Shown here one piece after another: positions 10,823-54,801 of a DNA stretch of 64,000 bases. The number at the start of each line of letters is the position of its first letter. Position 1 is the first letter of the stretch. A model generated the notes under the pieces. That model was given only the letters and a program-made list of their open reading frames with translations, had not been told where the DNA came from and did no database searches. A program made the translations under genes and the position numbers. This stretch comes from Promethearchaeota archaeon (GTDB taxonomy: Archaea > Asgardarchaeota > Lokiarchaeia > Sigyniarchaeales > SOKP01): assembly GCA_048940925.1 (NCBI GenBank), contig JBHLOC010000014.1:15184-79183 (forward strand). The letters run 5' to 3'.

Positions 10823-12088
10823 TTATATTACTTTTATTAATAATTCAGATATATCTACTATATTATACTTTTCTTTTTCTGTAGCATTAATACCATATGC
10901 TAAACCTAATTCACACAAAGGACAAGCTGAAATGAAATTTTTTGCCCCAGTTTCTTTTAATTCATTAATTCTATTTTGAGCTTCCTTAACAGCTAATTCT
11001 TTGTCTGCCCAGTGAGCGGTTCCGCTCCATCCACAACAATGTACATATTCTTTATTAAAAATTGGCTCATAAATTTCTAATTTGGGAATTCTATTGAGGA
11101 TATTTCTTATTGATTTTATGTCATTTAGATTTCTTGATATAAGACAAGGATCGTGGATTGTTATTTTTTTATATTTGTCAGGGATATTTTTATTAATTTT
11201 TAACTTTCCCTCCTCTAATAATTTATTGATATACTGAACTGTATGAACTATCTCAACATTAAGGCTAATTCCAACTTTTTTATACCTGTTTTTAAGAGTT
11301 ATAACGCAACCAGGACAATCTGAAATAATAATCTTTGCACCTGTGGATTCGATGAGTTCTTTATTTTTATCAGCAAACTCTTTAGCTGTTTCTAAATCTC
11401 TTATATTAAAAGCTGGTCCACCACAACACACTTTTTTAGTTAAATTGGTTGAAAATTTAATATTTGCTCTTTTCAAAATATTAATATTTGCTTTTATTAC
11501 TTCTGGAAATTTCATTGACTCGCAGCCAATATAATAAAATATGTCATCCTTTCCATCAGTTTCAATGTTTTCTATTCCCTTTTCTTTAAAAGTTTCATAA
11601 ATATTATAACCTTCTATAGTTTTTGATTCTTTCAATTTCTTTATCTGTTCTTTACAAAAATCTGGCATAAATCCTTTAGTATTAATATCTTCACGTACAC
11701 TTTCAAGCAAGGATACTACTGAAAAATCAAAAGGACACCATATTTTACATGATTCTTCATTTGTACATTTATACATCAAATTTACAAATTCAGATTCAGT
11801 ATAATCTATTTTTCCAATAGTTAAATAATATCCTATTCTTGTTTTATATGTAGGGCTCATTGTTTCAGTTAACGATGCCTGCAATGTCCCGCAATCAAAT
11901 CTACACATATTTGGGCAAAGCATACATTTTATTAAATTATCTACATCAGCTTTAACTTCCTCTTTAGGAAAGAAGTTTTTCTTCCTCTGTCTAAAATTTT
12001 TCATTAAAACAGATCTAGCGTCTCTATCTGCTTTTTGAAGAAATGGTATCATCCACTTATACTTTTTTAGTGTTTCTTCAATGCCCAT
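10823..12088 (-). CDS. Fe-S oxidoreductase with CCG domains (GlpC/GlcF/HdrD-like)
   Basis: CMLCPNMCRFDC, CTNEESCKIWCP, VCCG, DCPGC, HDPC, HCCG, ACPLC; GAGGTGA SD 7 nt upstream. Confidence 0.88.
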   Translation of the reverse strand: MGIEETLKKYKWMIPFLQKADRDARSVLMKNFRQRKKNFFPKEEVKADVDNLIKCMLCPNMCRFDCGTLQASLTETMSPTYKTRIGYYLTIGKIDYTESEFVNLMYKCTNEESCKIWCPFDFSVVSLLESVREDINTKGFMPDFCKEQIKKLKESKTIEGYNIYETFKEKGIENIETDGKDDIFYYIGCESMKFPEVIKANINILKRANIKFSTNLTKKVCCGGPAFNIRDLETAKEFADKNKELIESTGAKIIISDCPGCVITLKNRYKKVGISLNVEIVHTVQYINKLLEEGKLKINKNIPDKYKKITIHDPCLISRNLNDIKSIRNILNRIPKLEIYEPIFNKEYVHCCGWSGTAHWADKELAVKEAQNRINELKETGAKNFISACPLCELGLAYGINATEKEKYNIVDISELLIKVI

Positions 12089-42839: not shown

Positions 42840-43351
42840 TTTAGAACAGGAAAAAAATTCTGATTTTATTTTCTTATTATATAAAAAATAGTGTTATTAA
42901 AATTAATATTTTACTTTTATTTATGATAAATTTGAATAAACTTTACATTAAAATTTTTTAAATGGAATTAATTTATTTAAACTTACTAATAATTGAAGCT
43001 AATCAATGGATTACTAAAGAAACTAAATGATTTTTTTATTGTAAATTATATAATACATTAAAATATAAAATTTATAAAAATATTAAAAATCTTCAGAGTT
43101 GAAGAAATAGAAAACCTTTTTCAAAATTTAGAATTATTTTAATCTCATCAATTTTTGATAAAAGTCTAAAATAACCAATGGCTTTTTGTAAATATAATTT
43201 AAAGTAATCGCATATCAAGAGATTTTAATATAGTCTTATATATAGATATAACTATTACAAGAATATGGTTAATCCCTTTTCGAAACATTTTTACGCAAAG
43301 ATTATTTCTTAAATAATAATATATAATTAATTTAATCAAAATGAGATAAAG

Positions 43352-43717
43352 ATGAATGGCAAACAAAAATTTTATCTACTACTCGGATTATTTCAAATTA
43401 TTCTAGTTATGACTGTATTTTTCAGTATAAATGGAATTATTTCTTTTGCTGCTGCTCAAGCCCCAACCACCAGTGATTCTTATAATTCTTCTACAGCAGG
43501 GATGTTAGGAATAGCTGCAGGGATCGCAGTGGGAGCAGCCGTCATAGGAAGCGGTATGGCTATAAAAACAGTTGGTACTTCTGCAATTGCTGCATTAACC
43601 GAGAGAGAAGAATATTTTTTTAAGGCCTTCTTAGTTGTAGCTTTAGGAGAAGCTTTGGCCATATATGGTCTTATCGTAGCAATATTATTATGGACAAAGA
43701 TCCCAAACCCAGCTTAG
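43352..43717 (+). CDS. atpK: A/V-type ATP synthase proteolipid subunit K (c)
   Basis: Gly/Ala-rich hairpin with ALGEALAIYGL (ion-binding Glu); N-terminal hydrophobic extension. Confidence 0.92.
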   Translation: MNGKQKFYLLLGLFQIILVMTVFFSINGIISFAAAQAPTTSDSYNSSTAGMLGIAAGIAVGAAVIGSGMAIKTVGTSAIAALTEREEYFFKAFLVVALGEALAIYGLIVAILLWTKIPNPA

Positions 43718-43796
43718 ACCTTTTTAAAGAAATATCCATATTCAATTAAGATTTTATGACATAAACATATAGTATTATAATTATGGTGATATTTAA

Positions 43797-44837
43797 ACGA
43801 GTGTTCCTGTTCCTGCATATGAATATACCTTTATAAAAATTGGATTTTTAAAGCAATTAGTATTAGATGATATTGCCTTACAACACTTAAAAGTACTTAG
43901 GGATATACAAGAATTTATTGGATTTATTGAGCCTTATTATCCAGATCTAAAAGTTAATGATTATACTATCGAAGAAATTGAGATGGCTTTATATCATATT
44001 TTTTTTAAACTAATTGGAAAAATAATCTCCTTTTCGCCATTAAATATGCGGCGTTTTCTAAAAGATTATTTACTCAAATACGAAATAATGAATATCAAGC
44101 AAATCATTTTAGGCTTAATAATAGGCATGACAAATGAAGAAAAATCAAAAAATGTAAATTTTCTAATAGAGGAATATTTAGAAAATACTGATTTTATAAA
44201 AAAATTGATTGAAATATCTTCCTTAGAAGAAATTCAATTATATATGAAAAAAACTATTTACAATAAGGCAATTAGAGAGGGTATTCTTTATTTTAAGAAT
44301 AATAATGAAATATTTGTGCTTGAGGCATTTTTAGATCAATTATATTATTTTATCTTGTTGAGAAGAGAAAACATGTATAATAAAAAAGAAAAAAATATGA
44401 TATCTTTATTTAATTCCTTTAAAACAGAAATATATAATATTAATTTGATGTATCGTGGTATTATAAATGGAATTGATAAAAATCTTCTCTCTCAATTCAT
44501 AGTAAACAATTACTTATTTTTAGATGAAAATAAAATTAATGTTCTTCTGGATCAAAAAAATTTAAATGATTTTTTTTTGGAACTTGATATAATTTTACGA
44601 AAAATAATTGAACTGAAGTATTTTATAAATATTTCTGAGGAAGAGCATCCGATGTGGGAACTCGAAAGGTTATATGAGCAATATTATTTTAAAAAAGTTA
44701 AAATTACATTTGAAGATATTGAACATTTAACAATTTATCGTATTTTGGAATTGATTATAAAGAAAGAAAAAGAAATTAACCTAGAAATTATACCAAATGT
44801 AGTGAGGATTATTAATAGGAAGTTTAAGTCATTATAA
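43797..44837 (+). CDS. atpC: A/V-type ATPase subunit C; probable ACG start
   Basis: Frame open from ACG 43797 (after TAA 43794): (M)SVPVPAYEYTFIKIGFLKQLVL...; GGTGA SD 43785-43789; KYEIMNIK, EAFLDQLYY, EIYNI motifs; operon context. Confidence 0.8.
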   Translation, partial: TSVPVPAYEYTFIKIGFLKQLVLDDIALQHLKVLRDIQEFIGFIEPYYPDLKVNDYTIEEIEMALYHIFFKLIGKIISFSPLNMRRFLKDYLLKYEIMNIKQIILGLIIGMTNEEKSKNVNFLIEEYLENTDFIKKLIEISSLEEIQLYMKKTIYNKAIREGILYFKNNNEIFVLEAFLDQLYYFILLRRENMYNKKEKNMISLFNSFKTEIYNINLMYRGIINGIDKNLLSQFIVNNYLFLDENKINVLLDQKNLNDFFLELDIILRKIIELKYFINISEEEHPMWELERLYEQYYFKKVKITFEDIEHLTIYRILELIIKKEKEINLEIIPNVVRIINRKFKSL

Positions 44838-44889
44838 ACTGAAAATTAATCTATTAGTTAAAAAAAATAAAGATAAATGCATTAAAATT

Positions 44890-45201
44890 ATGGAGCTTTT
44901 TAATTGGTTAAAAGATATAGAAAAAATTTATGAAGATTTAATTGATAAAGAAAAAAAAGAAAGTGCAGATAAAATTCAATTATTAGAAGAACAATATAAA
45001 AAAGATCTTGAAGAAATTTTAGAAAAAAAGAGAAATTTTGTTAAATCAACTCAAGAAAATCTTTCAAAAGAAGTTTTAGATTATATTGAAGATTTTGAAA
45101 AAAAATCTAACGACGTAATTGATAGAATTAGGAAAAATTATCAAAATGATAAGAGTAAATTGATGCAAACAATTTTAGAAAAATTGGGGTTAAAATTTTA
45201 A
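44890..45201 (+). CDS. atpH: Putative A/V-type ATPase peripheral stalk subunit H (G)
   Basis: About 100-aa charged helical protein within the ATPase operon. Confidence 0.65.
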   Translation: MELFNWLKDIEKIYEDLIDKEKKESADKIQLLEEQYKKDLEEILEKKRNFVKSTQENLSKEVLDYIEDFEKKSNDVIDRIRKNYQNDKSKLMQTILEKLGLKF

Positions 45202-45521
45202 TGCCTGAGCAAAAAATATATGTATTAGGAAAAGACGAGATCGTTACAATGTTAGGATTATTAGGAATAGAAGGTAAAGTTATTAATGAGAATGATGATT
45301 TTTTAAAAGAATTTAACAATCTAGTAAGCAATCCCTCGATTATAATGATAATCATAGCATTAGATTTAGCAGATGATACTATTGATTTCTTAATTGATTT
45401 CAAACTTAATATAAGAAAACCATTTATATTTTATCTGCCAAATATTTTTCAATTAGATGATGATTCTAAGGATCTTTTTTTAACGAAAATTAATGAATCT
45501 ATTAGAGGCATCTTAACATAA
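45201..45521 (+). CDS. atpF: A/V-type ATPase subunit F
   Basis: KIYVLGKDEIVTMLGLLGIEG N-terminus; TAATG coupling. Confidence 0.85.
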   Translation: MPEQKIYVLGKDEIVTMLGLLGIEGKVINENDDFLKEFNNLVSNPSIIMIIIALDLADDTIDFLIDFKLNIRKPFIFYLPNIFQLDDDSKDLFLTKINESIRGILT

Positions 45522-45530
45522 AGGAGGTGA

Positions 45531-46262
45531 ATAAATTTTTCAGATGAGAGCAATTTAAAGAAGTCTGTAGGGGCTTTAGGATTATATTTAATAAATAAAG
45601 CGCTACAAGAAATCAAGGAATCTCATAGACAAATGTTATTTCAAAAAGCAGAAATGAAAAATAATTATAATGAAATGATAGACGAAGCTTCTTTAAAAGT
45701 AAAAAACAAATTTCTTGAAGATTATGATCAATTTTTAAATGAACATTTAACATCGAGCTTATTAAAATTGAAAGAAACAATTCTGAATCTTAAGAATCAA
45801 TTAAAAGAAGATTTAAGAATATCACTTTTTGAGTTAATTAAAACTAAATTAGATAAAAATTATTCAACATATATTGAATATATTTTAAATTTTATTAAAC
45901 TAGTAAGTGAGAATATAGGTGGTCATGGAAAAATTAACTTTTTTTTTAATTTAAGAGATTTTAATTACTTTAATAAAAATTCCAATAAAATTAAAAGTAT
46001 ATTCAGAGATTCAATCACTATTGAGCAATCTTCTCGTAAGTTTTTAGGAGGATTTGAAGTGACAATGCCTCAAGCATCCATTTCTTATGATTATTCGTTT
46101 GATACCCTTATAAATAGAAATTATACTCAAATTGAGTTGGAGTTTTCAAAAATTATTTCGGATGTTGAATACAAAAAATTATATGATGAATTTGAAGAAT
46201 TTATTCAAGAAAAAAAAAAAGATATAGAGGGAATTTTAAGTAAATATGACCAAATCAATTAG
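45531..46262 (+). CDS. atpE: A/V-type ATPase subunit E; start probably non-canonical, upstream of the first ATG
   Basis: FLGGF..ISYDYSFDTL motif. Frame is open from 45531 directly after GGAGGTGA (45523-45530); first ATG is at 45633. Confidence 0.75.
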   Translation: MNFSDESNLKKSVGALGLYLINKALQEIKESHRQMLFQKAEMKNNYNEMIDEASLKVKNKFLEDYDQFLNEHLTSSLLKLKETILNLKNQLKEDLRISLFELIKTKLDKNYSTYIEYILNFIKLVSENIGGHGKINFFFNLRDFNYFNKNSNKIKSIFRDSITIEQSSRKFLGGFEVTMPQASISYDYSFDTLINRNYTQIELEFSKIISDVEYKKLYDEFEEFIQEKKKDIEGILSKYDQIN

Positions 46263-48081
46263 ACAAGTTAATTCTGGACAGATTTCTGCGATTAATGGTT
46301 CTTTGATCGAAATAAAGGGTTTAGAGCATCAAATTCGACTTCATGACTTAATTGAAGTATCTAAACATAGTGTTTTGGGAGAAGTTATTCAAATATATTC
46401 AGATAAGGTGATTGCTCAATGTTTTGAAGATACAAGTAATATGAGATTGCATGAAAAAGTAATTGATTTAAAGGAACCTTTATCTATGGAATTAGCTCCA
46501 GGATTGTTATCAAGTATTTTTGATGGAATTCAACGACCCTTAGAAAATTTTTTTACACAATTCAAAGATACTGGATTTTTAGAAAAAGGTATTACGTTAC
46601 CTCCGTTATCCAGAACTAAAAAATGGCACTTTATTCCTCAAAAAGAGGTAAATAATAAGGTAAGTGGTGGTGATGTAATTGGAACAGTACAAGAAACTAC
46701 TTCTATAATACATTATATACTATTACCTCCAGAGGAATTTGGAATTTTAACTTACATTGCAGAAGAAGGGGATTATACTATAACTGATGAAATTTACAAA
46801 TTAAAAAACGGTAAAGAAGAAAAAAATTTTAATATGATCCAAAAATGGCCTGTTACACGATCTAGGCCCTTTTTTAAAAAAATAAGCCCTTTAGAACCAT
46901 TAAATACAGGAATGCGGGTTATCGATTTACTATTCCCTGTCGCGAAAGGTGGCACTGTGGCAGTTCCGGGGGGATTTGGTACCGGTAAAACAGTTATTCA
47001 ACAATCCCTAGCTAAATGGTGCGATGCTGATATAATAATTTTTGTAGGATGTGGTGAAAGAGGCAATGAAGTCGCTGATAGTTTAAAGGAATTCTCTAGA
47101 CTCATTGATCCGGTGACTGGACGACCTTTATTAGAGAGAGTAGTTGTTATTGCAAATACTTCTAATATGCCCGTATCAGCTCGTGAAGCGAGCATTTTTT
47201 CAGGAATAACTATTGGAGAATATTATAGAGATATGGGATATGATGTTGCTCTTATGGCAGATAGTACCTCAAGATGGGCAGAATCTCTAAGAGAAATTTC
47301 AGGATTATTAGAAGAAATGCCTGCTGAGGAAGGATATCCAGCTTATTTACCCTCAAAACTTTCAAGTTTTTACGAAAGAGCAGGTGTTATTGAAACTTTA
47401 GGAAATAATGAATTAAATGATAACAAAATGGGTTCTTTAACGATTATTGGTTCTGTATCACCCCCTTCTGGCGATTTTAGCGAGCCTGTGACAGCAACAA
47501 CTAAGCGTTTTGTTCAAGTTTTCTGGGCATTAGATGCAAGACTCGCATATGCCAAACATTATCCCGCTTTAAATTGGCTTGATTCATATTCAAATTACCC
47601 TGAATATATTGCTGATTGGTGGCTTAAAAAAGATATTAATTGGTCAGAGTTGGATCTCGATTGGTTTGATTGTCGAACTCAAGTTAATGAAATTTTATCG
47701 ATAGAAAATAATTTAAAAAATATTACTCAATTAATTGGAGAAGAAAATCTGCCAGAAGATCAGCAATTAATTCTCTTTATTGCAAAAATAATTAAAGAAG
47801 GTTTTCTAATTCAAAATGCATTTGATGATATTGATAATTATACTTCTGCTGAAAAGTTATTGCGACAAATAAAAATTGTCCTTTTATTAAATAAAGAGGC
47901 TAAAGAACTTTTGGATAAAGGGATTATTATTGAAGAGATTAAAGATCTTGAGATTGTGAATGACATTTTAAGAATTAGTAGTTCCATTCCTAATGACGAG
48001 TCCTATAAAATTGATGAATTAAAAAATGAAATGATTAAAAAAACTAAATCCATGAAAACAACTTATCGATTTATGAGATAA
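46246..48081 (+). CDS. atpA: A/V-type ATP synthase catalytic subunit A
   Basis: [51 protein letters not shown]. Confidence 0.97.
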
Positions 48082-48083
48082 AA

Positions 48084-49475
48084 ATGAGTGTAAGATATAA
48101 AAATATAAAACAGATCATAGGTCCGCTTATCTTTTTAGAAAATAACCATAATGTGCAATATGGAGAAATTGTTGAAGTTAATACCATCGAACAAAAAAAC
48201 CGTATTGGCCAAGTAATAAAAATTGATGAAGAATTAATCGTTGTTGAAGTATTTGAAGATACTAAAGGAATGTCTTCAGAAAATTCAACACTTATTTTTA
48301 CTGGAGAACCGTTTAAATTGAAAATTTCAAATGATATGTTGGGAGGTATTTTTAATTCCTTAGGAAAACCTATTGATATTTTCACAAAAAAAGTTTTGAA
48401 TTCTGATATTATAACTAATGTAGAACGAGATATTAATGGTGCGCCCATAAATCCATTTGCAAGGCAGTATCCTTCTCAAGTAATACAGACTGGGATTTCT
48501 ACTATAGATGGTCTATTTACCTTAATTAGAGGTCAAAAGCTTCCTATTTTTAGTGGGCAAGGACTTTCACACAATAAAATTGCAGCCCAAATTGTGACAC
48601 AAGCTAAAGTTTTGACAGAGGAACCTTTTCTAATAATCTTTTGTGGAATTGGAATTACTCAAGATGAAGCAATTTTTTTTGTAGATCGCTTTCAAAAAAG
48701 TGGGAATATTCAAAATATAATATCATTTATTAATTTTGCAGACGATCCAGTAATGGAGCGATTAATAATTCCTCGAGTTGCCTTAACAACCGCGGAATAT
48801 TTTGCTTTTGATAAAGAAATGCATGTTCTTGTTATCCTAATTGATATGACAAATTATGCTGAAGCTTTGAGGGAGCTTAGTTCAGCAAAAGAAGAAATAC
48901 CTAGTAGAAAAGGGTATCCTGGATATTTATATTCAGATTTTGCCTCCATTTATGAAAGAACAGGGCTAATAAAAGATAAGAAGGGGTCAATTACTCAAAT
49001 TCCGATATTAACAATGCCTAATGATGATATTTCTCATCCTATTCCAGATACTTCGGGATATATCACTGAAGGACAATTAGTATTGAATCGAACTTTGGAA
49101 AAAAAGGGGATTTACCCCCCCATTGAAGTTTTAGCTTCTATCTCGCGACTTATGAAAGATGCTATAGGTGATGGAACTACTAGAGAGGATCATGCCGATA
49201 TTAGTTCTCAATTATTAGCTTCTTATTCCACTGCTCTTGAAGTTAGAGATTTGATTTCAGTTGTAGGAGAAGATAGTTTAAATTTAGAACAAAAAGCATT
49301 ATTAAAATTTGCAGATGATTTTGAATTATTATTTATGAATCAGAAATTTAATGAAAATCGTGATTTTTCAAAATCATTTTCAATTGCATGGAAAGTATTA
49401 GCGAATCTTCCAAGGAATCAGTTATATAGAATTCATCAAAATTTTATCAATAAATATTATCCATCAGAGGTGTAA
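48084..49475 (+). CDS. atpB: A/V-type ATP synthase subunit B
   Basis: [55 protein letters not shown]. Confidence 0.97.
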
Positions 49476-49478
49476 ATA

Positions 49479-50111
49479 ATAAGTTTTAGAAAGATACAAC
49501 CAACAAAAACTAATGTTATTAATCTAACGAAGAAGTTAGATTTTGTTACAAAAGGAGAAAGTTTTTTAGAATATAAAGAAGAACAATTAATGCAACAAAT
49601 TAAAACTCTATGGTCAGACTTTAAATTATCTCAAAAAAATTTTTTTGTATTATATAAAAAGGCTCTTTCAAAATTATATGAAACTTATCAAGAGATGGGA
49701 AAACGGCAAGTAGTTATGATTAATAACATCAATATTATCCAATTTAAACCGTTTATAGATATAAATTATAGGAAAAAAATAGGAATTTTATTACCATATA
49801 TTAATTTCGAATTAAAACAAGAAGAGCAGCTTCCAGCTTACTCATTTGAAAATACAAGTCATCATCTTGATGAGTTAATAGTTATTTTAAAAGAATTCTT
49901 TGAAAGCTTAATTGTATTTGCTGAAAAAGAAGATATTTTATTAAAATTGACTTTAAATTTAAAAAAAATAAGCCGTAGAATAAGTGGATTAAAAAATGTA
50001 ATTAAACCTCAATTAATATCAGATATCAAAACAATAAAAGAAATTTTAGAAGAACTTGAAAGAGAAAGTTTTGTCCGATTAAAAAAAACAAAAAGTTTAA
50101 TTAAAGAATAA
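49479..50111 (+). CDS. atpD: A/V-type ATPase subunit D; probable ATA start
   Basis: The conserved N-terminus QPTKTNVINLTKKLDFVTKGESFLEYKEEQL lies upstream of the first ATG (49590). GAGGTG SD at 49467-49472. C-terminal RRISGL..LEELERESFVRLKK. Confidence 0.85.
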   Translation: MSFRKIQPTKTNVINLTKKLDFVTKGESFLEYKEEQLMQQIKTLWSDFKLSQKNFFVLYKKALSKLYETYQEMGKRQVVMINNINIIQFKPFIDINYRKKIGILLPYINFELKQEEQLPAYSFENTSHHLDELIVILKEFFESLIVFAEKEDILLKLTLNLKKISRRISGLKNVIKPQLISDIKTIKEILEELERESFVRLKKTKSLIKE

Positions 50112-50131
50112 ATATCGAGAGTACGATAAAT

Positions 50132-52402
50132 ATGAAATTTGACAATAAAATGAGTTTATTTAAAGTCACATTAGATAGGGAATACAAGGACATGTTTTTA
50201 ACAACTCTTGCTGAAGCCAAGGTTACCCATATAAAAGCAAGAAGTGAATATCAAGTGAAAAAAAGTAAAGAAGAAGAAGACATATTTAAAGAAAAAGTCA
50301 AAAACTTAAGGCTTAACCTAGATGTTTTATTTAAAAAATTAGAAATTGATGAACTTGACTTTCAAGGAATAAAAGTGAAATCCAAAGAAAAAGTAATATA
50401 TAATTCTAAAGACTCACATGAGTTAATAAATGATCTTTTAGAAGAAATTAATTATTATACAAATCGATTCGACGAATTAGAAAGATATATTACAAATTCA
50501 AAAATAGAATTAGAAAAAATCACTAGTTTAAAATTTACCTATCACTTTCTTGAACAATTTAACTTAAATCGTAGTAATCTAGCTAGTTTAACTCAATTTT
50601 CTTTTAGAGCTTATACTACTTTTTCAAAGAATTTAGGAATAATAAATTCTCTGTTTGATTTTTCTGAATTTCCTCATATCATTCAAACTGAACCTATAAC
50701 GAGTGAGAGATCTGCAATTTTTATAATTTATCTAAAAGAACAAGAAAGTGATTTGAGAGAGAAACTTAGCATTATTCATGCTGAAGAAGTACCTATAATA
50801 AAGAAATACTTGACTCCAGATGGAATTAACTTTGAGAGAATAGATAAGGAAGTTGAACTTATGGTGAATTATCTATCAAAATATGAAAAAGAAATAAATA
50901 GAATTAGAGAGGCAAATTTATTAAAATTTGCGGCGATGAATGAAGTTATATCTAATCTTGAAGAATATAATTGGGCAGAAAATCAGTTTGAAGAGTTATC
51001 ATTAAATCGATTAAGTTATAAATTTTTTACACTTCAAGTAAAAAAAGAAGATATAGCACAGAAATTAACTGATCTTTTTCATGATAAAATAGATATTGAA
51101 ATATTTGATATTGGAAAAAGGGGCGAAATATTAAAAAATGAAAAAATAAAAGAAGAAGGAGTTAACCATATAACAAAAGAAAATATTATTGATAAAAAAG
51201 AAGACTCAAAAGAAATAAAAGAAGATATAGAAAAGGGGACTCCTACTATGATGACTCATAATCGTATAATAAGACCTTTTGAAACATTAACAAGAATGTA
51301 TGGTACACCCTCCTACTCTGAAATTGACCCTACTCCTTTTTTATTCATTACATTTCCTTTACTATTTGGATTTATGTTTGGAGATATAGGACATGGACTA
51401 GTCTTAATAATTTCTGGAATTGTTGGTTCTATAGTATTTAAAAAGCGAGGAGGAGATCTCTATAATTTTTGTTGGATAATTTTCTGGTGCGGTATATGGG
51501 CTGTTTTAGGTGGTTTTCTCTACGGTGAATTTTTTGGATCTGAAGATATACTAGGATACCGTCTTAAATCCATTCCAATTCCACTTCCTTTCATAGGAGT
51601 AACAACTTTCCATGATCCCTTACACAATATAATACCAATCTTAATGTTAACATTAGCCATTGGAGTTATTCAAATTAATTTAGGGTGGACACTTCAATTT
51701 ATAAATTATTGGAAGGAATCCAAAAAATATCTTGCTTTTAGTGAATCTTTGATAAAAATTTTATTTTTAGATGGTTTCATATTATTACTTGTTCTATGGG
51801 GATTTAATCTTAATGCATGGTTTTCTGCACCATTCCCTCCTATTTTATTACCTTTAATACCAGGTCTTTTATTGGTAATTCTTAAACCACTTGGAAAAGT
51901 CTTTGGAATATCGTATTTAAAAGCATCTTCAGTTGCTGCACTATTAGGAGAAGGATCAATTGATACATTTGAAACTGTTTTATCAGTGCCGAGTAATGTT
52001 TTATCATATATAAGGATACTAGCCTTAGCCTTAGCGCATGTAGCATTGATGCTTGCAATTACAGCGATGATTGAAACAATTCCAGGATCAGGTATATTTA
52101 TCCAAATAATAATTGTAATAGCATTGATATTTGGGAATATTGTAGTAATTGTTTTGGAGGGAATTCTTGTATTTTTAAATGCTCTTAGGTTACACTTTTA
52201 TGAATTCTTTTTCAAGTTTTTTCATGGCTCTGGCTCTGAATTCATTCCTTTTATTTTGAAGGATGATTATTCAGTCATGAATTTTAATGTAGATGAGAAA
52301 GGTGATATAATTTCAACAGAAATAGAAAAAGAGATAGAAACCGAGAAAACTAAAGAAGAAATTGAAGATGCGCGGAAATATATCTACAATCAATTTTTTT
52401 AA
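50132..52402 (+). CDS. atpI: A/V-type ATPase subunit I (a)
   Basis: PFETLTRMYGTPSYSEIDPT, FGFMFGDIGHG, LSYIRILAL (essential Arg), LRLHFYEFFFKF. Confidence 0.95.
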   Translation: MKFDNKMSLFKVTLDREYKDMFLTTLAEAKVTHIKARSEYQVKKSKEEEDIFKEKVKNLRLNLDVLFKKLEIDELDFQGIKVKSKEKVIYNSKDSHELINDLLEEINYYTNRFDELERYITNSKIELEKITSLKFTYHFLEQFNLNRSNLASLTQFSFRAYTTFSKNLGIINSLFDFSEFPHIIQTEPITSERSAIFIIYLKEQESDLREKLSIIHAEEVPIIKKYLTPDGINFERIDKEVELMVNYLSKYEKEINRIREANLLKFAAMNEVISNLEEYNWAENQFEELSLNRLSYKFFTLQVKKEDIAQKLTDLFHDKIDIEIFDIGKRGEILKNEKIKEEGVNHITKENIIDKKEDSKEIKEDIEKGTPTMMTHNRIIRPFETLTRMYGTPSYSEIDPTPFLFITFPLLFGFMFGDIGHGLVLIISGIVGSIVFKKRGGDLYNFCWIIFWCGIWAVLGGFLYGEFFGSEDILGYRLKSIPIPLPFIGVTTFHDPLHNIIPILMLTLAIGVIQINLGWTLQFINYWKESKKYLAFSESLIKILFLDGFILLLVLWGFNLNAWFSAPFPPILLPLIPGLLLVILKPLGKVFGISYLKASSVAALLGEGSIDTFETVLSVPSNVLSYIRILALALAHVALMLAITAMIETIPGSGIFIQIIIVIALIFGNIVVIVLEGILVFLNALRLHFYEFFFKFFHGSGSEFIPFILKDDYSVMNFNVDEKGDIISTEIEKEIETEKTKEEIEDARKYIYNQFF

Positions 52403-52510: not shown

Positions 52511-52930
52511 ATGACTCTTGAGAAACAAAATAGCATTAGAAAACATTCAAAAAAATTTTACATTTTTAGAATAATATTATTGACAATATATGTAGGTTTT
52601 CTGATCCTCCTATATAGAATTCTACTTGATTTTGGTAGTTCTCATCTAATAGCTATTTTAATTTTCACTTTTGCTTTTTTAGTTTTTTTAGGATTATTAG
52701 TTAAAAGTAAAGATCTATCTCTCCTTTCATTATTCAAACGAAAAAAAATAAAAAAAGAGAATTATATAAAAGATTATGAAAAATACCACCCACATTTAAG
52801 AAGGGTTGATTATGTTAATCTTAATTTAAAATATCGTAAACCAATTGTACGTAAATGCAGTAATTGTGGAATTGTTTTAGCAGGATTCGTAAAGAGATGC
52901 CCTAATTGTGGTGAAAAGATCGCTCAATAA
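52511..52930 (+). CDS. Two-TM membrane protein with C-terminal zinc ribbon
   Basis: Two TM helices; CSNCG..CPNCG. Confidence 0.75.
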   Translation: MTLEKQNSIRKHSKKFYIFRIILLTIYVGFLILLYRILLDFGSSHLIAILIFTFAFLVFLGLLVKSKDLSLLSLFKRKKIKKENYIKDYEKYHPHLRRVDYVNLNLKYRKPIVRKCSNCGIVLAGFVKRCPNCGEKIAQ

Positions 52931-52983: not shown

Positions 52984-54801
52984 ATGTCAGAAATAAAACG
53001 GGGATATATTTCAGCAATTTATGGTTCTTTAATTGAAGTGAAGGGATTAGGAAATAGAACACGACTTTTTGACTTGATTAAAGTCACTAACAGCAACATT
53101 TTAAGTGAGATAATTCAAATTCATAAAGATTATGTAATCGCCCAAAGTTTTGAGAGTACCATTAATTTGAGATTAAAGGATGAAGTTATAAATTTGCAAC
53201 AACCATTATCTATGGAATTAGCTCCAGGTCTTTTATCTCATGTATTTGATGGACTCCAAAGACCTTTAGAAATCTCATTTCAAAAGTTTAAAGGAGGTGA
53301 ATTAAGACCAGGTATTGATTTTAATTCTTTATCAAGAACAAAAAAATGGCATTTTATACCCCAAAAAAGAGTAAATGATAAGATAAATGGTGGTGAAATA
53401 ATCGGGATTGTTCCAGAAACTCCGGTTTTAGACCATAAAATCTTAATACCTCATGAGATATCTGGTAAATTATCGTTTGTGGCAGAAGAGGGAGATTATA
53501 ACATTACTAACGAAATTTACAGAATAAAAAGTAATGGGGAAGAATTAGCTTTTTGTATGTTGGAAACATGCCCAATTAATGTCCAAAGACCCTTTAAAAA
53601 AAAAATACAACCAACAAAACCACTCCTAACAGGTATCAGAACAATTGATTTATTATTTCCTATCGCAAAAGGTGGAACTTTTGCAATTCCTGGAGGTTTT
53701 GGAACAGGTAAGACTGTTATTCAAGAATCCATCGCGAAATACTGCAATGCTGATGTGATTGTCTTTATAGGGTGTGGAGAACCTGGCAATGAAATTGCTC
53801 ATATAATGAAAGAATTTTCAGAAAATTTTGACTCAAATGGATATCCATTATTAGATCATATAATTCTTGTTGTCAACACTTCAAATATGCCTGTGTCAGC
53901 ACGAGAAGCAAGTCTTTTTTCAGGAATAACAATAGCAGAATACTATAGGGATATGGGATATGATGTTGCTGTAATTGCTGATAGTATTTCAAGGTGGGCA
54001 GAAGCTTTAAGAGAAATCTCAAGCTTATTGGAAGAAATGCCTGCGGAAGAGGGATATCCAGCATATTTACCATCAAAACTTTCAAGTTTTTATGAACGAG
54101 CTGGTTCTGTAATAAACTATGGGCAAAATCTTTCTGGTAATGAAAGATTTGGATCTCTAACTGTTATTGGTTCAATATCACCTCCAGCAGGTGATTTTAA
54201 CGAACCAGTTACCGCTGCCACAAAACGTATCGTTCAAGGCGTATGGGCATTAGATCCAAAGTTAGCTTATTTAAAACATTATCCTGCTATTGATTGGCTT
54301 AATTCTTATTCAAACTATCCTGAATATATTTTAAACTGGTGGAAAGAAAATGATATTATTTGGGATGAAGCAACTCTTGATTGGTATGAATGTCGTGAAT
54401 TAATAAATGAAATTTTATCGAAAGAGAATGATTTTAAATTAGCTGTACAATTAACAGGAGAATTAGACCTAACAGAAACTCAGAAATTCGATCTTCTTAC
54501 AGCAAAGTTAATTAGAAATAGTTTTCTCATCCAAAATGCATATGATAACATTGATAATTTTACTGATTATAAGAAATTATTAGTGTTGATTAAGTTAATC
54601 CTCTTAATTTACAAGGAGGGAAAAACCCTCTTGAAAACAGGATTCTCATTTGAAGAAAGTCAATTTGATCAGGTAATAAATAGTATTAAAAATATAAATA
54701 ATTCAATCTCTAATGAAAATTATAATCAAATTGAAAAATTAAAAAACAAAATTTTAGATGAGTCTTTAAGTTTAATATTTCCCTCTCGAAAAATGAAATA
54801 A
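52984..54801 (+). CDS. atpA: Second A/V-type ATPase subunit A paralog (GEP variant)
   Basis: [22 protein letters not shown] and [13 protein letters not shown] are intact, but GCGEPGNE replaces GCGERGNE (CCT at 53782-53784). Confidence 0.93.
   Translation: MSEIKRGYISAIYGSLIEVKGLGNRTRLFDLIKVTNSNILSEIIQIHKDYVIAQSFESTINLRLKDEVINLQQPLSMELAPGLLSHVFDGLQRPLEISFQKFKGGELRPGIDFNSLSRTKKWHFIPQKRVNDKINGGEIIGIVPETPVLDHKILIPHEISGKLSFVAEEGDYNITNEIYRIKSNGEELAFCMLETCPINVQRPFKKKIQPTKPLLTGIRTIDLLFPIAKGGTFAIPGGFGTGKTVIQESIAKYCNADVIVFIGCGEPGNEIAHIMKEFSENFDSNGYPLLDHIILVVNTSNMPVSAREASLFSGITIAEYYRDMGYDVAVIADSISRWAEALREISSLLEEMPAEEGYPAYLPSKLSSFYERAGSVINYGQNLSGNERFGSLTVIGSISPPAGDFNEPVTAATKRIVQGVWALDPKLAYLKHYPAIDWLNSYSNYPEYILNWWKENDIIWDEATLDWYECRELINEILSKENDFKLAVQLTGELDLTETQKFDLLTAKLIRNSFLIQNAYDNIDNFTDYKKLLVLIKLILLIYKEGKTLLKTGFSFEESQFDQVINSIKNINNSISNENYNQIEKLKNKILDESLSLIFPSRKMK

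Follow-up and report, generated by a model that had tools for sequence, protein, structure and literature searches.

Subunits C, D and very probably E of an archaeal A/V-type ATPase are likely, judging from comparison across genomes, to be translated from near-cognate codons, namely ACG for C, ATA for D and either ATA or, less likely, TTT for E. The operon encoding them is located at positions 43352-52402 (+) of the window, which is the whole 64,000-nt stretch of contig JBHLOC010000014.1 (Promethearchaeota archaeon, assembly GCA_048940925.1) that was analysed. Its nine ATPase genes, in the order K-C-H-F-E-A-B-D-I (Table 1), are densely packed and all intact, and K, C, F, A, B, D and I were identified by Pfam or NCBIfam matches. 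The genome assembly is metagenome-derived (4.8 Mb, 29.6% GC, 90 contigs, 8.4% estimated contamination). For comparison, the operon or portions of it were retrieved from ~27 genomes of the genus and from 12 genomes of other families of the same order (outgroups).

Start regions of subunits C, D and E

A preliminary description of the window had proposed that these three genes start at non-canonical codons behind good Shine-Dalgarno (SD) sites, and the coordinates it gave for the three start regions were all correct. The frames extend upstream of their first ATG, GTG or TTG (canonical codons) by 62 codons in C, 34 in E and 37-38 in D. When the orthologous operons were aligned, the homologous codons were found to be non-canonical within the genus (23 of 28 genomes for C, 20 of 20 for D and 24 of 25 for E) and canonical in nearly all outgroups. 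In nearly all genus genomes, D and E have no canonical codon between the upstream stop and the conserved N terminus.

For subunit C, the arrangement is as had been described: GGTGA (43785-43789) is followed by a 7-nt spacer that ends in an in-frame TAA and then by ACG (43797), while the first canonical codon is found only at 43983. The long frame matches Pfam AC39 (PF01992; E=2.6e-22) at residues 20-328 and NCBIfam AhaC (TIGR02923) at residues 7-332, the profiles thus covering the extension. Within the genus the homologous codon is ACG (23 of 28), TTG (4) or ATG (1), so that each of the 23 genomes without a canonical codon at this position carries ACG; among the outgroups it is ATG in seven of eight and ATT in the eighth. 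Most genus genomes have GGTGA or GGTGG 4-7 nt (mainly 7) 5′ of the start, with AGTGA in two and only GGGGT in one, and the four genomes with TTG in place of ACG have the same SD and the same 7-nt spacing as those with ACG. ACG accounts for 7% of the Thr codons in the genome, and in the same alignment a Thr codon ten positions 3′ of the start varies (ACT, ACA, ACC and one ACG). Because ACG is rare among Thr codons and the later Thr codon drifts, the ACG at the start of C is kept as a nucleotide triplet rather than as a codon for Thr.

For subunit D, GAGGTG (49467-49472) is followed directly by the stop codon of B (TAA, 49473-49475) and then by two consecutive ATA codons (49476 and 49479), with the first canonical start at 49590. 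The Pfam ATP-synt_D profile (PF01813; E=9e-32) has its position 1 at residue 13, and a TIGR00309 match above cut-off is aligned from residue 4. Directly 5′ of a conserved Ser-Phe, the 20 genus genomes read all carry ATA, ATT or ATC, and the 12 outgroups all carry ATG, GTG or TTG; in most of the former, AGGTG is followed at once by the B stop codon (TAA or TAG). The earlier proposal of a non-canonical ATA start behind GAGGTG thus holds, with the correction that it had named both ATA codons and homology points to the second (49479), which sits 6 nt past GGTG. By this homology, the start of D is the second ATA.

For subunit E, GGAGGTGA is found at 45523-45530, its TGA being an in-frame stop, and is followed by ATA AAT TTT TCA; the first ATG (45633) is codon 35. 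The position at which relatives start is that of TTT 45537, with an SD spacing of 6 nt: the homologous codon is ATT, ATA or ATC in 24 of the 25 genus genomes and ATG in the three outgroups whose N terminus could be aligned. From the in-frame TGA (45528) to the conserved Ser there is just one near-cognate codon, ATA 45531, and it adjoins the SD without a gap. The closest relatives (G045 and L117) carry ATA at this same upstream position and ATC at the conserved one. The claim that E lacks a canonical start for 34 codons therefore stood, but the start itself is ambiguous, as the conserved position is occupied by TTT and the ATA abuts the SD.

Searches with single E sequences returned weak YscL- and PA28-like matches only and no match to the E family, so a family profile was needed. 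The 16-member profile matched the solved V-ATPase E structures 4dt0 and 2dm9 (~1e-8 to 1e-7), and 10 of the 16 members matched Pfam vATP-synt_E (PF01991). Over the 31 aligned residues just 5′ of the first ATG, E is ~80% identical to its orthologue in G045, versus 60% overall. The TTT at the conserved position is identical in two other assemblies. TTT at this position was also seen in an ENA metagenome contig (L118; E gene near 2124-2140), the E of which is only 63% identical and has an in-frame GTG three codons 5′ of the TTT.

The remaining subunits mostly start at canonical codons. K has ATG or TTG and H has ATG in 21 genus genomes each; F has ATG across the genus, except for ACG in one genome (G017, L099); I has ATG or TTG in the relatives. 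An in-frame ATG or TTG is present at or next to the aligned N terminus of A in every genome with a readable start; for B, the aligned start is ATG in each of the 31 genomes that gave a full-length match. In a sister family, the K gene of G032 begins with ACG, an in-frame TGA upstream leaving no other choice, and that of G025 probably does as well; in both (L107 and L106, respectively) this ACG stands behind AGGTG plus 7 nt. In another genome (G028, L109), C starts at ATT, and K possibly does too.

Candidate SD-led starts across the genome

A search of the present assembly for 16S rRNA returned no match. As the gene is not assembled here, the anti-SD was taken from one genome of the same genus (G023) and one of the same order (G032), in both of which the 16S 3′ end reads GGATCACCTCC(T) and is complementary to the SDs of C, E and D. 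These are the only strong SDs of the operon, the six genes with ATG having a weak SD or none. Elsewhere in the window, GGTGA lies 6-8 nt before the normal starts of the reference genes at 12088 (minus strand), 30564, 58454 and 59727, as had been noted.

The preliminary description further suggested that SD-directed non-AUG initiation may be general in this lineage, and a genome-wide count agrees with it. Frames open for at least 100 codons were counted behind an exact GGTGA, near an upstream stop and with no earlier canonical codon. At 6-7 nt past GGTGA, the canonical codons ATG, TTG and GTG were found 35, 22 and 5 times and the near-cognate codons ATA, ATT, ATC and ACG 24, 20, 10 and 5 times, compared with 9 for AAA, 4 for AAT and 1 for the other three Thr codons. 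The four near-cognate codons are enriched at this spacing in the way that ATG and TTG are, yet the common codons AAA and AAT are not. When candidate codons were instead scored for an aligned SD run of at least 5 nt, the SD-preceded share was 9.1% for ATG, 9.8% for TTG and 7.5% for ACG, then 3.3, 2.5 and 2.4% for ATC, ATT and ATA, respectively, with ~1% for unrelated codons. The excess of SD-led ATA, ATT, ATC and ACG starts amounts to ~80 genes, that is, ~2% of genes and about a fifth (~22%) of SD-led genes. At the ATPase starts, the same codons recur across the genus.

Other frames led by ACG retain motifs that are bound to lie near the N terminus, for example the Rossmann GxGxxG. Besides C, four frames that begin with ACG are located 6-7 nt past GGTGA, at C56:54439-55464 (+), C55:59277-59834 (+), C71:28595-29362 (-) and C58:13096-13953 (+); one of the four opens with the Rossmann motif, which would be lost at the next canonical start 80 codons on.

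We infer that initiation takes place at the ACG and ATA codons themselves. A strong SD would pair with the 16S 3′ end and place the codon 6-7 nt downstream in the P site, where the ordinary initiator Met-tRNA would pair with a single mismatch, the strength of the SD making up for the weakness of the codon. The resulting C, D and E proteins would be of full length and carry an N-terminal Met. The ATG of the other families of the order would have changed to ACG or to ATA, ATT or ATC once, near the base of the genus, and been retained since, the ATPase starts being one instance of a genome-wide habit involving ~80 genes.

Several observations weigh against this explanation. About half of the genus genomes have an in-frame GTG, TTG or ATG 3-5 codons 5′ of the ACG of C, in or adjoining the SD, which could be the actual start in those genomes; ~12 genus genomes, including the present one, have no such alternative upstream. 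For E, the ATA has a spacing of 0 to GGTGA, whereas canonical starts number ~4 at a spacing of 0-1 versus 57 at 6-7, and the TTT at the conserved position is not near-cognate, so in the present genome only TTT and not ATA stands at the usual SD spacing. Among the 34 tRNAs that ARAGORN recovered, an incomplete set because many tRNAs carry introns, there was a normal-looking initiator candidate with a CAT anticodon and no sign of an initiator reading ACG or AUA. In E. coli, ATA, ATT and ATC yield 1-2% of the output of ATG, and ACG <1% (10.1101/063800). Such an output is far too low for a 1:3 ratio of subunits, thus initiation in this lineage would have to be more permissive. With regard to the RNA genes, the missing 16S and the 34 tRNAs indicate that they are under-assembled or hard to detect in this assembly.

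As to which codon E uses, a genome-wide search for SD-led frames with neither a canonical nor a near-cognate codon nearby found only 2 cases. Starts that are not near-cognate are therefore unsupported, and ATA 45531 is favoured as the probable start, TTT 45537 being a lesser possibility. We favour the view that the start codon of E has turned over within the sub-clade of the present genome.

Subunit stoichiometry, recoding and sequence accuracy

In the known complex, the subunits are needed in unequal amounts, and the preliminary description had suggested that weak start codons may tune these amounts. On this reading, the codons would have been selected for bringing production of C, D and E down in relation to A3B3 and the K ring, thereby setting the stoichiometry of the complex. 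Some of the evidence is in line with this. In ~25 genus genomes, C, D and E (and F in G017) are the only subunits with non-AUG starts, A and B never having them, and these starts have persisted through deep divergence, with C orthologues being 50-58% identical. The operon's three SD-led genes all have near-cognate starts, compared with ~22% of SD-led genes genome-wide (post-hoc p ~0.01). Moreover, K, A and B belong to the genes with the least folding around their starts, a trait that Quax et al. report for abundant subunits (PMC13347799). Across the start regions of the nine genes (window 43332-50151), predicted folding from -20 to +20 is 0.0 kcal/mol for K, -1.1 for A and -1.2 for B, and -3.9 for C, -3.2 for I and -5.3 for F; the start region of D (-0.9 kcal/mol) is an exception to this pattern.

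However, the most abundant subunit, K, itself starts at ACG in G032 and probably in G025. The partners present at 1:1, E with H and D with F, combine an ATG and a weak SD in one gene with a non-AUG codon and a strong SD in the other, therefore the codon alone cannot set the ratios. As the preliminary description had itself cautioned, the low-copy subunits F, H and I use ATG in this operon. The non-AUG genes also have the only strong SDs, and net initiation rates could well be similar. Since each change arose only once or twice, the pattern rests on ~6 events, and for an AT-rich genome it is not significant that ATG has not been regained. Finally, in the outgroups the same complex is made from C, D and E genes that start with ATG. 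An association of weak signals with low copy number and of strong signals with high copy number was not consistent across the taxa compared. Stoichiometric tuning is thus unsupported as a rule and appears unlikely, though possible. In their study of operon-encoded complexes of uneven stoichiometry, Quax et al. (2013) found that start-region folding and codon bias mattered and SD strength did not, start-codon identity not being considered (PMC13347799). The present case resembles theirs in being an ATPase operon with subunits required in unequal amounts and with abundant subunits among the least folded at their start regions; it differs in that the link of start codon to copy number breaks here for K in a sister family.

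A combined possibility is that Lokiarchaeial ribosomes accept ACG, AUA, AUU and AUC efficiently behind a strong SD, and perhaps UUU as well, and that the genus fixed these codons in three ATPase subunits as a heritable setting that keeps the ratios of C, D and E to A3B3 low and constant. UUU would then perhaps represent two mismatches that are each tolerated singly. We regard this as doubtful.

Recoding offers another route to the full-length proteins. Translation would start at an upstream canonical codon, such as ATG 43783 or GTG 43786 in the case of C or within the frame of B in that of D, and reach the gene by frameshift, by readthrough or by termination-reinitiation without a start codon. 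B and D are in one frame separated by a single stop, F and E also share a frame, and an out-of-frame ATG GTG overlaps the SD of C; tight packing of the genes also makes it likely that D and E are coupled to the cistron before them. However, these relations vary among genomes. B and D are out of frame in four genus genomes, and the B stop may be TAA or TAG. For C, genomes differ in their in-frame upstream stop and in the frame that the SD-internal GTG occupies, yet the spacing from the SD to ACG is kept; for E, two stops lie between F and E. No conserved upstream frame whose shift or readthrough site keeps a constant position relative to the gene was found, as the frame relation varies among genomes both for B to D and for the SD-internal GTG to C and E. 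Furthermore, these codon classes have their peak at this SD spacing across the whole genome as well. Recoding is thus very unlikely as the source of the N termini of C, D and E. Two specific versions were rejected: a -1 frameshift from ATG 43783 into C, which is not conserved, and an interpretation of the motif ahead of E and D as four-base or start-stop (NTG+A, GTG-TAA), for which the frame relation differs among genomes.

That ATG was misread as ACG or ATA, or that the operon is degenerating and its products start at downstream ATGs and lack their N termini, is extremely unlikely. It might be suggested by the state of the assembly (metagenome-derived, 90 contigs, estimated contamination 8.4%) and by the TTT that E has where relatives have ATT. 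However, two Logan assemblies built from other runs match the window at 100% identity over stretches of 7.6 and 4.0 kb in which the ACG and TTT sites are included (which makes sequencing error very unlikely), the same codons recur in at least 20 separately assembled genomes, the TTT recurs in the unrelated ENA contig, and the nine genes are intact with extensions conserved at the protein level.

Comparison with known systems, annotation and other features

The closest precedents are the AUU codons of infC (encoding IF3) and pcnB, the sole two confirmed near-cognate starts in E. coli (10.1101/063800). As in those genes, a near-cognate codon behind an SD would begin the full-length protein with the normal initiator tRNA and is conserved among relatives. 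For C and D, three marks of this class were found: no canonical in-frame codon, homology of the codon to canonical starts, and an SD at canonical spacing. Unlike in E. coli, ~80 genes are concerned rather than two, ACG is included, the organism is an archaeon with eukaryote-type aIF1 and aIF2, and nothing implies a feedback loop on the ATPase genes. The mechanism would thus be SD-led near-cognate initiation of the infC/pcnB kind, acting at many genes, at ACG as well, and in an archaeon whose initiation factors are of eukaryotic type.

In eukaryotes, near-cognate initiation (at ACG, CUG, AUU and others) is known from ribosome profiling and from viral genes. The codon classes are the same as here, including ACG with its mismatch at the middle position; however, eukaryotes rely on scanning and Kozak context and mostly produce alternative isoforms or use such codons for upstream open reading frames, whereas here a core gene would have no other start, and an SD positions the codon. 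In plant chloroplasts, the ACG starts of ndhD and psbL are edited to AUG by C-to-U conversion in the mRNA, which likewise provides a conserved genomic ACG at the start of a gene for a membrane-complex subunit. Editing of this kind is not known from archaea, and it would leave the ATA, ATT and ATC starts unexplained.

Among Asgard archaea, a 'rare ATT start codon' was inferred for the tubulin gene AtubA in a methods section (PMC13394414). There, too, a gene had been annotated too short, and an ATT at a plausible distance from the ribosome-binding site restores the conserved N terminus. AtubA is a single gene; the present case comprises three genes of one operon that were traced through the genus and the outgroups, includes ACG and is accompanied by a genome-wide count. 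In ribosome profiling of Haloferax, near-cognate alternative sites were seen but set aside (PMC7261190). A systematic account of non-AUG starts in Asgard archaea was not found in the literature searched, coverage of which was incomplete.

Systematic N-terminal mis-annotation, which the preliminary description had anticipated, is evident in public gene calls, as non-AUG starts lead gene finders to shorten the C and E proteins. For the identical C sequence, calls of 332 and 263 aa exist instead of 346 aa, and E is called as 209 aa or, in one NCBI assembly, only as a 67-aa fragment. In the latter (L117, GCA_048941065.1, 4657-5397), the start of E is ATA or ATC, and the remainder of the gene has for this reason been left without annotation. 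Asgard core proteins are thus being deposited N-terminally truncated or nearly missing, which affects structure prediction, expression constructs and phylogenies of proteins used for studying the origin of eukaryotes. Among prokaryotes, conserved starts at ACG, in which the middle position is mismatched, are rare, and they are characteristic of near-cognate initiation in eukaryotes. If a lineage possessing aIF1 and aIF2 routinely used ACG behind an SD, it would be a natural system for studying the evolution of start-codon stringency, and this operon offers clean natural swaps from ACG to TTG to ATG at constant SD geometry.

Table 1. Genes and SD sites of the ATPase operon, in window coordinates
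Feature	Position	Strand	Remarks
Subunit K (c-ring proteolipid)	43352..43717	+	Pfam ATP-synt_C; ATG start, weak SD
SD of subunit C, GGTGAT	43785..43790	+	Complementary to 16S 3′ end; GGTGA is 43785-43789
Subunit C (AC39/d homologue), 346 codons	43797..44837	+	Likely ACG start, 43797-43799; Pfam and NCBIfam profiles
103-aa protein, probably stalk subunit H/G	44890..45201	+	Assigned by operon position; ATG start, no SD
Subunit F	45201..45521	+	Pfam ATP-synt_F; ATG overlaps stop codon of H
SD of subunit E, AGGAGGTGA, 9 nt	45522..45530	+	Its TGA is an in-frame stop for E
Subunit E	45531..46262	+	Frame open from ATA 45531; TTT 45537 is the start position of relatives; first ATG 45633
Catalytic subunit A	46246..48081	+	Pfam; ATG start
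Subunit B	48084..49475	+	Pfam; ATG start; final codons and stop overlap SD of D
SD of subunit D, GAGGTG	49467..49472	+	Within 3′ end of B
Subunit D	49479..50111	+	Start by homology at second ATA, 49479-49481
Subunit I (a)	50132..52402	+	Pfam V_ATPase_I; ATG start

The 103-aa H/G-like protein had no family match in profile searches. Just past subunit I, a 139-aa gene without a family match (52511-52930) precedes a second intact catalytic A gene (52984-54801, +), which is 59% identical to A in protein and 71% in DNA sequence. This second gene has a full Walker A motif and all four A-subunit domains, and may encode an alternative catalytic subunit of the same complex.

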